Source: an uncultured Clostridia bacterium
GTDB taxonomy: Bacteria > Bacillota > Clostridia > Christensenellales > CAMQZB01
Reading direction: 5' to 3'
Assembly: GCA_964406735.1 (NCBI GenBank)
Contig: CAYOSU010000004.1
Coordinates: 1,782 to 65,781, forward strand
Length of the DNA stretch: 64,000 bases
The notes under the pieces: model-generated
Seen by the model: only the letters and a program-made list of their open reading frames with translations
What the model was told of the DNA's origin: nothing
Databases searched by the model: none
Part shown: one piece after another, positions 17,316 to 63,813 of the stretch
Position numbering within the stretch: position 1 is the stretch's first letter
How the letters are laid out: each line of letters begins with the position of its first letter
Translations under genes and position numbers: made by a program

Positions 17316-17344
17316 TTGATATTTGAAAATAAATATGCTATTAT
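17316..17344 (+). promoter_or_regulatory. Sigma-A type promoter of the large ncRNA
   Basis: TTGATA (17316-17321), 17-nt spacer, TGcTATTAT (-10 at 17339-17344). Confidence 0.55.
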
Positions 17345-17349
17345 TACAT

Positions 17350-17992
17350 TCCATAGGTGGTGCAGTATTCTAGTCGGATTTCCGCATTCTGAAAACGGGG
17401 TTAAAAGACCGTAGCGGGCATATCGATGAAGTTTCTGGTGCATGCTTCCGTTGCCCAAACGGGGGTGTGTGCTGGAAGATAAGGTCTATGGGCGTTCCGT
17501 AACGGCATACGGAGAGCGACCCATTTACCGCGGAGGCTCAAATACGTGGAGAAGATTAAGTTCACGCTCTACGGTTTGAGATTAAACCTGCAATGTGGCA
17601 ACAAAACGCTATGTGCAGTGTAGCCTGCCTTGAGTGGACGGTGTGGATCAGGGAACAACGAATAAGTTAAGGCCATTAACGAAAGCGATCGCTCTGTGAA
17701 ACACACATCTGCAAAAGAGGCTGGGAATGTGGGGATCTGTCAATGAAAGATTCTAGGCTGTGCGGAGAACCGCTTATGCGTATCTGGGATTAAAGTGTGG
17801 TCTTAGTGGCGATTCAGTTGTGCGTTTGGCGACAGCGCACCGCCCTGTTTGAACGGAAACGGCTCCTGCGGTGACGGGGAGTACAGCGTGCGGAGAAACT
17901 CTACTGAACCTTATGCCGCAAAGTTTACTGGATGCGCAACCACCTCAATCGAAATTATCAAGGCGATGGGTCAGCCCACCGCCTTGTTTTTT
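17350..17992 (+). ncRNA. Large structured non-coding RNA, OLE (ornate large extremophilic) RNA candidate
   Basis: No credible ORF. Own promoter and terminator (17962-17992). Closing helix 17356-17363 / 17936-17944 and many internal hairpins. Diagnostic synteny: ispA upstream; a 4-TM protein, tlyA, nadK, argR and recN downstream. Confidence 0.7.
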
Positions 17993-32112: not shown

Positions 32113-32526
32113 TCAGCCGATAGTCTTAGTAAGCCTCACGATAAGCCCGCTCGGCTCGTTTTTGGCGACTTCTACCTTGTCGCAAAGAGCTTGCATAACG
32201 GCAAACCCGAGCCCTGCCCTTTCCTCGTCGGGCTTTGTGGTATAAAACGGCTTCATAGCGGCGTGTATGTCGCTTATGCCGACTCCCTTGTCGCTTATCT
32301 CGATAACGGCGGTCTTGCCGAAGACCTTGACGCTCACCTCGACCTCTCCGCCGTCTGTGTAAGCGTGTACGACCGAGTTTGTAACTGCTTCCGATACGGC
32401 GGTCTTGACGTCGTTTATCTCCTCGACGGTCGGGTCGAGCGACAGCACGAACGAGGCGACTGCGCTTCGTGCGAAAGCCTCGTTTTCAGATACGGCGTCG
32501 AATTTCATATATAATTTCTTGTCCAT
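32113..32526 (-). CDS. spoIIAB: Anti-sigma-F factor (serine kinase)
   Basis: VSEAVTNSVVHAY, I.DKGVGI.D, RAGLGF (GHKL ATPase motifs). Confidence 0.9.
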   Translation of the reverse strand: MDKKLYMKFDAVSENEAFARSAVASFVLSLDPTVEEINDVKTAVSEAVTNSVVHAYTDGGEVEVSVKVFGKTAVIEISDKGVGISDIHAAMKPFYTTKPDEERAGLGFAVMQALCDKVEVAKNEPSGLIVRLTKTIG

Positions 32527-32554
32527 GATAGCACTCCTTTTTTTTGTAATACGG

Positions 32555-32863
32555 TCAGCTTATTTTCGGCATGACCTGATAAAGCCCCGACGTAACGAGT
32601 ACCTTCTCGACATTGGGCTTTGGGTTTTTGATATAGACCGTTGCGCCTTTACCTTTAAGCCTTTTGTACCGTCCGAGCATAAGCCCAATGCCGGTAGAGT
32701 CGGTAAAATCAAGCGCAGACAGCTCGTAGATCGCACTCTCGATATACAGCGAGTCGATAAGCTCATCGAGCTTTTCCCGTGCAGGCTTTGCCGAATGCTC
32801 GTCAAGCTCTCCCGAAAAATATAAAACGAGCGTGCATTTTGAATAGGAATATTTGATCTCCAT
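32555..32863 (-). CDS. spoIIAA: Anti-anti-sigma factor (STAS)
   Basis: 102-aa STAS domain with the phosphorylatable Ser context DFTDSTGIG. Confidence 0.9.
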   Translation of the reverse strand: MEIKYSYSKCTLVLYFSGELDEHSAKPAREKLDELIDSLYIESAIYELSALDFTDSTGIGLMLGRYKRLKGKGATVYIKNPKPNVEKVLVTSGLYQVMPKIS

Positions 32864-32956
32864 ATATCACCTCAGATTGTTTTCCCTCATCAGAAATGAT
32901 GATACTACGTTATTTCCTTCGGTGCGTAGGAGAAAACTTGCGTATGAGTCTACTAT

Positions 32957-32963
32957 TGTCGAA
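32957..32963. promoter_or_regulatory. Consensus 0A box upstream of the spoIIA operon
   Basis: TGTCGAA about 95 nt upstream of the spoIIAA start. A single heptamer, so it could be chance. Confidence 0.3.
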
Positions 32964-33060
32964 AACACAGAAGAAGCCTTTTCCAACGCATAAAAATTGT
33001 ATAAACGGAGAATTTAAGTATAAAAATTCAAAAAAATTACCGAATCGGACTAAAAATCCG

Positions 33061-33089
33061 TTGACAAATGGCTTCGATGCGAGTATTAT
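33061..33089 (+). promoter_or_regulatory. Sigma-A type promoter of the ABC importer operon
   Basis: TTGACA (33061-33066), 17 nt, TATTAT (33084-33089). Confidence 0.55.
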
Positions 33090-33132
33090 AATAACAAGTT
33101 AGCGTACTAAAGTGCGCAAAAAGGACGACGCA

Positions 33133-33189
33133 ATGAGAAACGTATCGAGCATTTATTATTATTACTTTTACTTTACGGAGATCGAGTAA
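33133..33189 (+). CDS. Candidate leader peptide MRNVSSIYYYYFYFTEIE (Tyr/Phe-rich)
   Basis: 18-codon ORF in the 5' leader, with AAGGA 7-8 nt upstream of the ATG. Seven consecutive aromatic codons (33154-33174). An intrinsic terminator lies 42 nt downstream. Confidence 0.45.
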   Translation: MRNVSSIYYYYFYFTEIE

Positions 33190-33231
33190 ATATTTGCTGC
33201 GATAATTTTTGCGTTACAAAAAACGAAACAC

Positions 33232-33266
33232 AAGGACTTATCGTGAGGTAAGTCCTTATTTTTTTA
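33232..33266 (+). terminator. Leader (attenuator) terminator upstream of the ABC importer
   Basis: AAGGACTTA / TAAGTCCTT stem, 8-nt loop, T-run. Ends 27 nt before the ATG of the binding-protein gene. Confidence 0.75.
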
Positions 33267-33293
33267 GGATAAATTTTTTTAAGGAGTATATAT

Positions 33294-34280
33294 ATGAAAA
33301 AGCTTGGAAAGATCACGAAATTAGCAGCTATATGCTTATCACTCGTACTTTTAGTCTCGATGACCGCTTGCGGCAACGAAACGAAAAACAAAGACCACTT
33401 CGTCGTAGGCATCTGTCAGTTGGTAACGCACGATGCACTCGATGCGGCAACGCAGGGCTTCAAGGATGCTTTGACCGAGGAGCTTGCAAAAGAGGGCAAG
33501 ACGGTAGAGTTCAAAGAGGGCAACGCCGCAGGCGACTCCAACACTTGCGTAACTATAGCCAACGGCTTCGTATCGGCAAAAGTCGACCTTATCATGGCAA
33601 ACGCAACTCCGGCATTTCAGGCGGCAGCGAACGCTACGCTCGACATCCCTGTATTGGGAACTTCGATAACGGCGTACGGCGTTGCGCTTGAAATGGACGA
33701 TTTCGATGGCACGATAGGTGGCAACCTTTCGGGAACGAGCGACCTTGCTCCTATTGACGAACAGGTAAATATGATGCTTTCCTTAGTCCCCGACGCTCAG
33801 ACGGTAGGAATCTTGTACTGCTCTGCCGAGCCTAACTCCAAATACCAGTCGGACGTTGCCGAGGAGCTTTTGAAAAAAGCAGGCAAGACCGTAGTAGTCA
33901 AGACGTTCAGCGACTCGAACGACATCTCGGCGGCATTGAACGCAATTTGCGACAGCGTAGACCTCATCTTCGTTCCGACGGACAACACCGTAGCGTCTAA
34001 CACCGGTATCATCGACCAGATCTGCAGTCTCAAAGGCGTTCCCGTATTTGCAGGCGAAGAGGGCATCTGCAAGGGTTGCGGCTTCGCAACGCTTTCGATA
34101 AGCTACTACAACATCGGCGTCAAGACGGGCAAGATGGCGGCTGAGATACTTCTCGGCAAGGCAGATATTTCCAAAATGGCTGTTCAGTACGACGAAACCC
34201 CCGTCAAGAAGTTTGTCAAGGATCGTTGCGAGGCGTTGGGAATAACGGTACCGTCTGATTACGAAGAGATAGAAAGATAA
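33294..34280 (+). CDS. ABC transporter substrate-binding lipoprotein (COG2984 / TrpX-like family)
   Basis: Lipobox LLVSMTAC, then VGICQLVTHDALD, ANATPA, GTSDL and VPTDNTV blocks typical of ABC_sub_bind. Confidence 0.85.
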   Translation: MKKLGKITKLAAICLSLVLLVSMTACGNETKNKDHFVVGICQLVTHDALDAATQGFKDALTEELAKEGKTVEFKEGNAAGDSNTCVTIANGFVSAKVDLIMANATPAFQAAANATLDIPVLGTSITAYGVALEMDDFDGTIGGNLSGTSDLAPIDEQVNMMLSLVPDAQTVGILYCSAEPNSKYQSDVAEELLKKAGKTVVVKTFSDSNDISAALNAICDSVDLIFVPTDNTVASNTGIIDQICSLKGVPVFAGEEGICKGCGFATLSISYYNIGVKTGKMAAEILLGKADISKMAVQYDETPVKKFVKDRCEALGITVPSDYEEIER

Positions 34281-34290
34281 GGAGAAAAAC

Positions 34291-35181
34291 ATGGGTATAC
34301 TAAACGCAATACCGGGCGCAGTAGCGCAAGGACTAATATGGGGAATAGCGGCGATAGGGCTGTATATCAGCTACCGGGTGCTCGACTTTTCCGATCTTAC
34401 GGTTGACGGCTCGATATGCACAGGCGCATGCGTTGCGGCGATGCTGTTACTTGGCGGCGTAAACGTCTGGATAGCTATGCTTGCGGCGTTTGTTGCAGGA
34501 ATGCTGTGCGGACTTATCACGGGACTTTTCCACACCAAGATGGGCATACCCCCGATATTGGCAGGAATTCTAACTCAGCTCATTCTGTGGTCGGTAAACC
34601 TCAAAATATTGGGACAGGCTAACAGGGCGTTGAACCCGAGACAGTTAGACCTCATAATAACCCAGCTCAAAATAGGTCCGTCGTTGCTCGTTTTGGTAGC
34701 GTTCGTCGCAGTCATCATCGCAATACTATATTGGTTCTTCGGAACGGAGCTCGGCTCTGCGATAAGAGCAACGGGCTCTAACGAGAAAATGGCTCGTGCT
34801 CAGGGCATAAATACGAGCTTTTGCAAGGTATTTGCGCTTATGATATCCAACGGCTTAGTATCCCTTTCGGGTGCGCTTCTGGCGCAATATCAGGGCTTTG
34901 CCGACATAAATATGGGACGAGGTGCAATAGTCATCGCGCTTGCGGCGATAATAATCGGCACGACCCTCGTCAAGATGATAAGCCACAATTTCGCAGTCAA
35001 ACTGTTCGGTGCGGCGCTCGGCGGAGTAATTTATTACATCGTATATCAGGTAATAATCGCGCTTGGCTTCGATACCGACCTTCTCAAGATGCTGTCTGCG
35101 ATAGTCGTTGCGATATTCTTGGCAATACCGTACTGGAAGAAAAAAATGAGCGAGAGACCGAAAGGAGAGAAAAATGCTTGA
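34291..35181 (+). CDS. ABC transporter permease (COG4120)
   Basis: Multi-TM; AQGLIWGIAAIGLYISYRVL.F.DLTVDGS. Confidence 0.85.
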   Translation: MGILNAIPGAVAQGLIWGIAAIGLYISYRVLDFSDLTVDGSICTGACVAAMLLLGGVNVWIAMLAAFVAGMLCGLITGLFHTKMGIPPILAGILTQLILWSVNLKILGQANRALNPRQLDLIITQLKIGPSLLVLVAFVAVIIAILYWFFGTELGSAIRATGSNEKMARAQGINTSFCKVFALMISNGLVSLSGALLAQYQGFADINMGRGAIVIALAAIIIGTTLVKMISHNFAVKLFGAALGGVIYYIVYQVIIALGFDTDLLKMLSAIVVAIFLAIPYWKKKMSERPKGEKNA

Positions 35182-35968
35182 ACTTAAAGGAATAAAAAAG
35201 ACCTTCCACAAAGGCACGTTGAACGAAAAGGTAGCTCTCGACTTAGAGGATTTCAAGATAAACGACGGCGATTTCGTCAGCGTCATCGGTGGTAACGGCG
35301 CAGGCAAGTCGACGCTTATGAACATAATAAGCGGCACCCTTCTCCCCGACGAGGGAAAGATAACTCTCGACGGCGTAGACGTCACCATGCTTTCCGAGCA
35401 CAAGAGAGCAAAGTTCTTGGGAAGAGTTTTCCAGGACCCCATCATGGGCACTGCCGCTAACATGCAGATAGAGGAAAACCTTGCGCTCGCAAAAAGACGA
35501 GGCGAGAAAAGAGGCTTCGGCTGGGGCATAACCAAAGCCGAAAGAGAGGAATACAAGAAGCTTTTGAAGGACTTTGACTTAGGACTCGAGGACAGACTGA
35601 CGTCGAAAGTAGGGCTGTTATCGGGCGGACAGAGACAGGCGTTGACTCTTATCATGGCAACGCTCAAAAAGCCCAAGGTATTGCTCCTTGACGAGCACAC
35701 GGCGGCACTCGATCCCAAGACGTCTGCAAAGGTCATGGGTCTTACCGAAAAGCTTGTCAAAGAGAACGAGCTGACGACGCTCATGATAACGCACAACATG
35801 GCAAACGCCATCGAGTACGGCAACAGGCTGATCTTAATGCAGAGCGGCAAGATAATATACGACGTTTCGGGCGAGGAAAAGGCAAAGCTCACCGTCAAGG
35901 ACCTGCTCGACAAGTTCAGCGACACGGCAAAGGAGCTCGTCAATTCCGACAAAGTAATGCTTGGCTAA
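35174..35968 (+). CDS. ABC transporter ATP-binding protein (COG1101)
   Basis: Walker A GGNGAGKST, signature LSGGQRQ, Walker B LLLDEHTAALD. Confidence 0.9.
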   Translation: MLELKGIKKTFHKGTLNEKVALDLEDFKINDGDFVSVIGGNGAGKSTLMNIISGTLLPDEGKITLDGVDVTMLSEHKRAKFLGRVFQDPIMGTAANMQIEENLALAKRRGEKRGFGWGITKAEREEYKKLLKDFDLGLEDRLTSKVGLLSGGQRQALTLIMATLKKPKVLLLDEHTAALDPKTSAKVMGLTEKLVKENELTTLMITHNMANAIEYGNRLILMQSGKIIYDVSGEEKAKLTVKDLLDKFSDTAKELVNSDKVMLG

Positions 35969-36016
35969 AAAGAATACACCAACACTTTATATCATATACC
36001 TTCATAAAAAATAAAA

Positions 36017-36041
36017 ATGCACGAGAAATTCGTGCATTTTT
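36017..36041 (+). terminator. Rho-independent terminator
   Basis: ATGCACGA / TCGTGCAT followed by TTTT. Confidence 0.75.
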
Positions 36042-36106
36042 GCGTATACGCAAAAGTTTTTGCCATATAGAGAAATATTTGCCGCAAAATAAGGCACAAT
36101 AAGCGT

Positions 36107-36921
36107 ATGGAGAAAAAAGACAGAGTAGATCCGTGGCTGCTTATTCTCGGCGGCACGCTGACGGGGCTTGCGAACGGGCTTTTTGGCGGTGGCGGCGGTA
36201 TGATAGTCGTGCCCTTTTTGATATATTTTGCGGGTCTCGAACCCAAAAAAGCGCACGCAACGGCGATAGCGGTTATCCTCCCCGTAACGATCGTCTCGGG
36301 GCTAATATACCTCAATAGCTTCGATATATCCTTAAAAAAGCTGTTGCCGTCAACGATAGGAGTAATAGTCGGCGGAGTGTTAGGCGCATACGTTTTGCCG
36401 AAGCTTCAGAATAGCTTCGTCATGCTTCTTTTTGCCGCAATAATGATATTGGCAGGAGTGAGACTTATCATGGGGTAGATTTCATTGCGTTTATGGTGGC
36501 AGGCTTTTTCGGAGGAGTGTTAGGCGGTATGGGCATGGGCGGCGGTACTCTCCTGATACCCATTCTGACAGTTATCTTAACGGTATTTCAGCACGAGGCG
36601 CAGGGCATAAATCTGCTGTCCTTTATCCCGATGGCGATAATAACCGTCGTCATGCACGCCAAAAATAAAATGATAACGTGGCGTTACGCACTGTTAGTAA
36701 TGCTCCCTGCGATAGCCTCGTCCGTGATTTCCTCTCTTTTCTCGGCAAAGCTTTCGCAAAGCGTGCTTTCGACCTCGTTTGGCATATTTTTAATAGCGCT
36801 GGGAGTGTTTCAGATGATAAGCGAGCTAATAAAGCTTTTCAAAAACGGAAGCGGAACGGAAAAAGAAGAGGAAAAGGGAACGTCCGAAGCCCCTTGCGAA
36901 AAAGCCACGGATAACGAGTAG
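36107..36921 (+). pseudogene. TauE/SafE (TSUP, DUF81) anion-exporter gene split by a frameshift at a G-run (or two half-size genes)
   Basis: ORF 36107-36478 (4 TM, GGGGGMIVVP) and ORF 36493-36921 (4 TM, GMGGGTLLIP) are the two internal repeats of one TSUP protein. The second frame is open back to about 36430. The frames meet at GGGG 36472-36475, and there is no RBS before 36493. Confidence 0.55.
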
Positions 36922-63616: not shown

Positions 63617-63638
63617 AAAGGTATCAATTGAATATTTG

Positions 63639-63704
63639 CCAATATATCTATAGATGATACGGTCTGTAAGTTTCTACCGCAACGCCATAAGTTGCGACTA
63701 TTGG
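63639..63704 (+). promoter_or_regulatory. Purine riboswitch aptamer, guanine/hypoxanthine-specific type (C at the specificity position)
   Basis: P1 CCAATA/TATTGG. P2 TATAGA-TGATACGG-TCTGTA. J2/3 AGTTTCTACC. P3 GCAAC-GCCATAA-GTTGC. J3/1 GACT. Near-identical core to B. subtilis xpt (GGAUAUGG...AAGUUUCUACC...CCGUAAAU...GACUAUGG). Confidence 0.85.
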
Positions 63705-63813
63705 GAAAATATCGTTTGTCCGACGAGGGCATTCATATTTATTTTCTTCGGAAGAGTGCTTTCCGCTTTTGGGAAATTGGGAAAGAGAGCTCTCCGTCAA
63801 GGTGTTTTGGCAG

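Follow-up and report, generated by a model that had tools for sequence, protein, structure and literature searches.

A 64,000-nucleotide (nt) stretch of contig CAYOSU010000004.1 from an uncultured Clostridia bacterium (hereafter the window) contains, at positions 33061–33293, the leader of a three-gene operon for an ATP-binding cassette (ABC) importer. Our analysis indicates that this leader is, with a probability of roughly 0.85 on sequence evidence, a Tyr/Phe-sensing, ribosome-mediated transcription attenuator of a tyrosine ABC importer. Ribosome-mediated attenuation in response to Tyr and Phe had been proposed in an original prediction made from the window alone, and it is now supported by a small open reading frame (mini-ORF) that is conserved in relatives, by the retention of its frame and of its run of Tyr and Phe codons, by the terminator that follows it, and by the exchange of the leader for T-boxes at orthologous loci. 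The sequence parts of the leader, their conservation, the covariation of the terminator, a conserved potential for antiterminator pairing, and the link of the operon to Tyr and Phe are directly observed.

The leader and its conservation in relatives

Rereading of the window places the promoter, the AAGGA sequence, the mini-ORF, the terminator, and the ATG of the next gene exactly where the original prediction had put them (Table 1), confirming the anatomy of a leader ORF with its own ribosome-binding site and a terminator ahead of the structural gene; the seven consecutive Tyr/Phe codons at 33154–33174 are likewise present as claimed. In particular, the promoter comprises the hexamers TTGACA (33061–33066) and TATTAT (33084–33089) separated by a 17-nt spacer, is the top promoter-like site within 32500–36500, and probably directs a transcript start near 33096. 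The terminator hairpin (33232–33257) has a calculated energy of −14.3 kcal/mol, and the binding-protein gene beyond it has a ribosome-binding site, AAGGAG (33281–33286), ahead of its ATG at 33294. Taken over its full length, the leader has a better fold than its shuffles (z = −3.6).

To assemble relatives, the binding protein was searched against one genome per GTDB species, yielding 80 loci with 52–62% identity, all from Clostridia-type metagenome-assembled genomes (MAGs) and isolates. Closer relatives were added through exact-protein contig look-ups among Clostridia MAGs and metagenome contigs, giving syntenic contigs with binding proteins 86% and 89% identical (L081 and L082–L085, respectively) or 65–67% identical (L086–L091, L093–L099). 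A same-strand ATG mini-ORF is located 90–260 nt upstream of the binding-protein gene at 14 of the 80 GTDB loci, most of them with a clear Tyr/Phe run (the run is weak in L004, L037, L062, and L066). Altogether, 19 distinct leaders with a clear Tyr/Phe run are positioned upstream of orthologous binding-protein genes (52–89% identical), and examples of the encoded peptides at orthologous loci are MKRITANAFYYYYYYFRNRVI, MKLNRFIANGFYYYFYFESNGCLCCS, MNQQAFAFAYFYYYYFTKK, and MKNLYFASEYYYYYFTVQNVM. A Shine-Dalgarno sequence is present 7–12 nt 5′ of the ATG in 18 of these 19 leaders; their residues are 23.6% Tyr, 14.1% Phe, and 0% Trp, and their aromatic codons comprise 54 TAC, 38 TAT, 48 TTT, and 7 TTC. 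The mini-ORF that the original prediction had proposed to look for upstream of orthologous transporters is found there with its frame and Tyr/Phe run, and the loss of frame or of aromatic codons in relatives, which that prediction had named as evidence against itself, is not seen.

The frequency of such ORFs indicates that the mini-ORF is not a chance occurrence. Using as a criterion an ATG ORF of 8–45 amino acids with a Shine-Dalgarno sequence and with at least 6 of 7 consecutive residues Tyr or Phe, we count 10 ORFs in 27.6 kilobases (kb) upstream of orthologous binding-protein genes and none on either strand of the remaining 991 kb of locus sequence. The mini-ORF at 33133–33189 is the single ORF in the 64-kb window that passes this criterion.

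Comparison with close relatives reveals conservation at the level of codons. The product of the mini-ORF, MRNVSSIYYYYFYFTEIE in the window, is MKNVFYFYYYYYFTEIE in L081, MKNVFGIYFYYYFTEIE in L082, and MKKVFGIYFYYYFMEIE in L097. Specifically, the ORFs of close relatives differ by a 3-nt indel, by synonymous TAT/TAC changes, and by Tyr/Phe exchanges, with the frame and the aromatic run kept. Codon order, the choice of TAT or TAC, and the length of the run differ among relatives, and the cluster is conserved as amino acids; Tyr and Phe codons vary in number as well as in order, peptide length ranges from 16 to 33 amino acids, the sequence outside the run is unconstrained, and no other peptide feature is common to all subfamilies. 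The in-frame 3-nt indel, the TAT/TAC and Tyr/Phe exchanges, and the absence of Trp codons suggest that the ORF is translated. Invariant in the close relatives are the promoter hexamers (both of them, with a variable spacer, in the relatives having an 86–89% identical binding protein), the hairpin at the 5′ end of the leader, region 2 of the antiterminator, and the terminator stem, while codons near the run drift. The 5′ hairpin (33102–33117) has 6 base pairs (bp) and is kept in L081–L085, with one A-to-G change in L081 that retains a G-U pair; it may serve to stabilise the RNA.

The leaders split into at least three structurally different subfamilies. Members of the third (L004 2620–2778, L037 2602–2685, L062 2764–2865, L066 823–918, and L064 from 2775) have longer upstream ORFs (uORFs; 27–52 amino acids) with fewer aromatic codons and a strong terminator after them, and share a stretch ...(A/K)(A/V)RF.AGRYF... 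ahead of the terminator. In a Christensenella-like MAG (L003), two full leader units (2694–2805 and 2839–2964) stand in tandem before one binding-protein gene, encoding MKKTNLYFYYYFYFKS and MKRITANAFYYYYYYFRNRVI and having a separate terminator each.

Table 1. Features of the leader and importer operon (window coordinates)
Feature	Position	Strand	Basis or remark
Sigma-70-type promoter TTGACA-17-TATTAT	33061–33089	+	11 of 12 positions match
5′ hairpin GCGUAC-UAAA-GUGCGC at leader start	33102–33117	+	in minimum-energy fold
Shine-Dalgarno sequence AAGGA of leader ORF	33121–33125	+	7 nt 5′ of ATG 33133
Region 1, putative anti-antiterminator	33127–33152	+	ACGCAA(U) 33127–33133 and UAUCGAGCA 33143–33151, pairing with region 2
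Leader-peptide ORF, 18 codons, encoding MRNVSSIYYYYFYFTEIE	33133–33189	+	TAA stop 33187–33189
Control codons TAT TAT TAT TAC TTT TAC TTT (5 Tyr, 2 Phe)	33154–33174	+	candidate ribosome stall site
Region 2, antiterminator 5′ strand, UGCGAUAAUUUUUGC	33198–33212	+	begins 8 nt past stop codon
Region 3, antiterminator 3′ strand	33231–33245	+	overlaps terminator 5′ arm 33232–33242; C33237 bulged
Intrinsic terminator (attenuator)	33232–33265	+	11-bp hairpin 33232–33257, then A and seven T (33258–33265)
Substrate-binding lipoprotein, CD0873-like tyrosine type	33294–34280	+	Pfam ABC_sub_bind, E = 3e-53
Importer permease	34291–35181	+	Pfam BPD_transp_2 match
Importer ATP-binding subunit	35174–35968	+	Pfam ABC_tran match; 8-nt overlap with permease gene
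Palindromic hairpin between A-run and T-run, 3′ of ATPase gene	36013–36041		likely end of operon

Importer identity and T-boxes at orthologous loci

The closest solved structure to the binding protein is that of C. difficile CD0873 (6HNI; E = 2e-51). CD0873 binds tyrosine specifically, as determined by crystallography and thermal shift; its residue Glu263 hydrogen-bonds the tyrosine hydroxyl, its residue Tyr279 keeps tryptophan out, and Ala stands in place of Glu263 in VC_1101, which binds Phe, and in SP1069, which binds Trp, the latter also having Gln at the position of Tyr279 (PMC6816091). Residues E255 and Y271 of the window protein align with Glu263 and Tyr279, respectively, and both selectivity residues are conserved in 87 of 87 aligned orthologs. 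The operon is best described, as predicted from these residues, as encoding a CD0873-type tyrosine importer, which may also carry Phe.

This assignment alters one part of the original description of the importer as TrpXYZ-type. The make-up of ABC_sub_bind protein, BPD_transp_2 permease, and ABC ATPase stands, and the three-gene layout with an ABC_sub_bind protein is that of both the CD0873 importer (6HNI/6HNJ/6HNK; PMC6816091) and TrpX (PMC9382623; 3LFT). A tryptophan specificity does not fit: unlike TrpX and SP1069, the window protein has no Ala and Gln combination admitting Trp, and the leaders hold no Trp residue. We reject a tryptophan-type TrpXYZ identity on the basis of E255 and Y271, which do not follow the Ala/Gln pattern of SP1069 (3LFT). 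The broader claim of an aromatic amino-acid importer under leader control is supported by the CD0873-like pocket and by the presence of Phe and Tyr T-boxes on orthologous operons.

Specifically, Rfam-significant T-boxes replace the mini-ORF at three orthologous loci (L010, L047, and L056). Read in the register of the covariance model (GAA-NNN-A), L010 and L047 have a Phe specifier, UUC, and L056 has a Tyr specifier, UAC. The three T-boxes all carry UGGU, which matches a tRNA whose discriminator base is A. Loci L092 and L101 (the latter reading GAAUUCA) are T-box-like by eye and by alignment and score below the Rfam gathering score. In the window, no T-box (RF00230) is matched at the gathering or E-value threshold. 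The same importer is preceded by a predicted Tyr/Phe leader peptide in some Clostridia and by predicted Phe or Tyr T-boxes in others.

Terminator, antiterminator, and the proposed switch

In each of the 17 leader units analysed, a hairpin with a T-run separates the mini-ORF from the binding-protein gene; among loci without leader ORF or T-box, a terminator is present within 200 nt upstream in just 7 of 60. Covariation in terminator and antiterminator was assessed with an alignment of 12 sequences of the window's structural subfamily. In this alignment, the terminator is 99.1% paired, compensatory changes affect 7 of its 11 pairs, and the observed values are attained by none of 500 shuffles.

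When the Tyr/Phe run is masked by a ribosome footprint and the transcript is folded as far as the terminator loop, an antiterminator results in which 33198–33212 (region 2) pairs with 33231–33245 (region 3) through 14 pairs and a bulged C33237, sequestering 10 of the 11 bases of the terminator 5′ arm. The original prediction had seen only a marginal antiterminator, an 8-bp pairing that clipped the 5′ arm, and this part of it is superseded. For the duplex in the window, the energy lies between −10.6 and −11.6 kcal/mol and z is −2.3 relative to dinucleotide shuffles; the mean z over 17 units is −2.5, and the pairing is better than dinucleotide shuffles at p < 0.05 in 10 of 16 distinct leaders. 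Over 11 distinct sequences of the subfamily, the antiterminator helix is 93.4% paired, as compared to 40–47% after sliding of the 3′ partners. A second subfamily (L006, L009, L012, L021, L022, and L040) has another region 2, GGUUGUUUGUGCUGC, with a pairing energy of about −20 kcal/mol. This region 2 sits within the ORF, where it is translated as ...NGCLCC, except in L021, where it is located just past the stop codon, indicating an RNA element instead of a peptide motif.

The placement of region 2 relative to the ORF is consistent with control by ribosome position. In 16 of 17 units, region 2 starts between −49 and +12 nt relative to the stop codon's end, so that a ribosome finishing the ORF would be on or beside region 2. 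In the window, the Tyr/Phe run ends 23 nt upstream of region 2, and a ribosome stalled in the run would be expected to leave region 2 free. Region 1, by contrast with these elements, is the weakest link of the model. Its segments 33127–33133 and 33143–33151 pair with 33196–33214 (−14.8 kcal/mol, z = −2.2), and this pairing is in the minimum-energy fold; the mean z of the 1:2 pairing over all leaders is −0.8. In other members, the first codons, for example AUG AAA AAA UCG UAC, are complementary to region 2, and ribosome-free region 2 bases have a mean probability of 48–79% of pairing with upstream sequence.

From these elements we infer a mechanism comprising translation of the ORF, stalling, an order of helix formation, and a regulatory output. 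The quantity sensed would be the charging of tRNA-Tyr and, secondarily, of tRNA-Phe. Transcription would begin near 33096, and a ribosome would load at AAGGA/AUG (33121/33133) and translate the 18-codon leader. With ample Tyr-tRNA and Phe-tRNA, the ribosome would get to the UAA at 33187 and depart; region 2 would be obstructed by the terminating ribosome or drawn back into pairing with region 1 (33127–33152), the hairpin at 33232–33257 with its U-run would form, and transcription would end 29 nt before the binding-protein gene. With charged tRNA-Tyr or tRNA-Phe scarce, the ribosome would stall within 33154–33174, covering region 1 and not region 2; region 2 would then pair with 33231–33245 before the terminator 3′ arm is transcribed, the terminator would be blocked, and RNA polymerase would read through into the importer genes.

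Several observations weigh against attenuation of this kind. The antiterminator helix shows 2 double changes in the subfamily alignment, no better than the shuffle control; this is probably because A and G can both pair with the U-run of region 2, so that changes forced by the terminator require no compensation in the antiterminator. The stop codon in the window is 8 nt before region 2, a distance at which a terminating ribosome would cover only the first 1–3 bases. Segment 33143–33151 of region 1 is not conserved in the 86–89% relatives, which makes the enforcement of the Tyr-replete state uncertain. Equilibrium energies favour the terminator (−14.3 kcal/mol) over the antiterminator (about −11.4 kcal/mol), and minimum-energy folds with the masked footprint keep the terminator in every state. 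Since, in addition, the terminator 5′ arm is always paired with something in truncated transcripts, equilibrium folding is unable to separate the states, and duplex energies compared to shuffles were used in its place; the preference for the terminator at equilibrium implies that the switch would have to be kinetic, through co-transcriptional order, as in trpL. Finally, a leader ORF and a T-box are both missing at about 60 of the 80 GTDB loci (for example L001, L002, L011, and L014), most of which also lack a terminator within 200 nt upstream, and regulation of these importer loci, if any, must be of another kind.

As an alternative, a nascent-peptide sensor like TnaC, in which the Tyr/Phe-rich peptide arrests the ribosome translating it in response to free tyrosine and the importer is induced at abundant tyrosine, for example for fermentation, and not at low tRNA charging, could use the same stall-to-antitermination wiring; relatives such as C. 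difficile ferment tyrosine (PMC6816091), and one leader subfamily (L004, L037, L062, L064, and L066) has a fixed ...RF.AGRYF... motif. We nevertheless consider such a sensor very unlikely. Across subfamilies, the number and order of Tyr/Phe codons are free and the rest of the peptide is unconserved, a pattern that fits codon-starvation sensing and not a specific arrest peptide, and orthologous operons use T-boxes, which respond to uncharged tRNA. If the run acted instead as RNA, it could be a site for a TRAP- or HutP-like protein controlling the terminator, with the ORF incidental: the UAY/UUU run consists of repeated U-A-pyrimidine triplets, able to pair with the stop-codon region. This reading is made highly improbable by the coding properties of the run, which in 18 of 19 cases is in frame with a Shine-Dalgarno-preceded ATG with no stop between, by the indel of exactly 3 nt in close relatives, by the fixed position of the stop codon relative to region 2, and by the lack of a candidate RNA-binding protein gene linked to the locus.

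The mini-ORF products are short, aromatic, and conserved as a class, as would befit a small hydrophobic peptide with a function of its own (for example in the membrane or as a modification precursor) and with a terminator that merely ends its transcript. There is, however, no gene for modification or export near the locus, the unconstrained length and sequence outside the run are not those of such a peptide, the NGCLCC tail found past the stop codon in L021 is RNA (region 2) and not protein, and NCBIfam and Pfam give no match; we find this explanation barely credible. As for a chance low-complexity TAT repeat beside an unrelated hairpin, the region is AT-rich, and the repeat had been flagged as a caveat in the original prediction, but the count of 0 comparable ORFs in the 991-kb control, the conservation over lineages with differing codon orders, and the covariation of the terminator effectively refute it, leaving a negligible probability.

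Relation to known attenuators and neighbouring features

Leader-peptide attenuation itself is classic, but in Firmicutes T-boxes dominate and leader-peptide attenuators are rare. Like pheL-pheA, trpL, and hisL, the Tyr/Phe leader combines a short ORF served by its own ribosome-binding site with a cluster of codons for the regulatory amino acid and with an intrinsic terminator, and its proposed 1:2, 2:3, and 3:4 pairings would exclude one another and be selected by ribosome position. It differs from these enterobacterial leaders in that it has no sequence or structure homology to them, its control codons are mainly Tyr, its host is a spore-forming Clostridium, and its target is an importer and not a biosynthetic operon. 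Among low-GC Gram-positive lineages, similar replacement of a T-box by an amino-acid-specific uORF at related genes is exemplified by bacilli, in which a His leader precedes hisS/hisZ paralogs (PMC2965389), by S. aureus, with a Leu-rich attenuator of ilv-leu (PMC5794164), and by Acholeplasma, in which uORFC-13-1 is a candidate Phe uORF upstream of aroF (PMC8632094). As compared to these His, Leu, and Phe leaders of Firmicutes and relatives, the amino acid here is Tyr and then Phe, the target is an ABC importer, the clade is Clostridia (Christensenella-like, Oscillospiraceae, and Lachnospiraceae MAGs), and there is no sequence similarity. The leader shares with Tyr/Phe T-boxes (RF00230) its position and, as proposed, its amino acids and antitermination at low tRNA charging, but sensing here would run through a translating ribosome and not through direct tRNA-RNA binding.

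The leader is not represented in the resources searched. With the gathering threshold applied to the whole window, and with a permissive E-value applied to 32860–33320, Rfam 15 has no family at 33061–33293; the best cis-regulatory match is Phe_leader (RF01859), at 15.3 bits versus a gathering score of 55 (E = 7.6). Rfam likewise has no match to the leader in 20 leader-bearing loci, and NCBIfam and Pfam have no match for seven leader peptides. A literature search found no Tyr-codon leader and no attenuator of the CD0873-type importer family, with subscription journals thinly covered and an earlier description possible, and CD0873 is not on the list of T-box-regulated C. difficile genes. The Tyr-codon version of the leader-peptide attenuator appears undescribed. 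On balance, we favour the view that the leader is the first recognised case of widespread Tyr/Phe-sensing, Tyr-codon leader attenuators of gut and environmental Clostridia that are evolutionarily interchangeable with Tyr/Phe T-boxes.

If attenuation proceeds as proposed, ribosome and RNA polymerase would be timed tightly enough in these Firmicutes for classical attenuation. In B. subtilis, runaway transcription has been described. For C. difficile, a transcriptome study suggested that runaway transcription is not dominant (PMC8237595), which is compatible with a working leader-peptide attenuator in Clostridia. The element would constitute a simple genetic read-out of transcription-translation coupling in Clostridia, and the use of leader peptide or T-box at the same importer would provide natural examples in which a ribosome-based sensor takes the place of an RNA sensor that binds tRNA. 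The leader also argues for tyrosine, perhaps together with phenylalanine, as the substrate of an importer that, although poorly annotated, is very common in gut Clostridia, in which tyrosine uptake feeds p-cresol and related metabolism.

Upstream of the leader, on the opposite strand, are genes resembling spoIIAA, spoIIAB, and sigF, indicating that the host is a spore-forming Firmicute. Downstream, the operon likely ends at the palindromic hairpin at 36013–36041, which could act bidirectionally. This hairpin is followed on the + strand by two adjacent short TauE/SafE ORFs (36107–36478 and 36493–36921), which match the C-terminal half (121–237) and the N-terminal half (3–114) of the Pfam profile, respectively. 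The same pair is present downstream of the importer in L081 (6163–6498 and 6513–6905; 86% identity), and the two ORFs thus look like a conserved two-gene arrangement and not a broken gene.

The only Rfam matches in the window are both outside the leader: a full-length OLE (ornate large extremophilic) RNA at 17341–17959 (+ strand, 428 bits) and a purine riboswitch aptamer at 63620–63720 (+ strand, 51 bits versus a gathering score of 37). At several orthologous loci, mostly from Lachnospiraceae MAGs, TwoAYGGAY and GA-cis RNAs are located 0.7–2.8 kb upstream of the binding-protein gene (L025 183–347, L027 260–424, L030 266–430, and L053 466–630; L025 and L036 2243–2328) and are probably unrelated to the importer. 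Thiamine pyrophosphate (TPP) riboswitches are located a few kb downstream of the importer at three loci from Faecousia MAGs (L016 6701–6809, L039 6728–6834, and L043 5399–5507).

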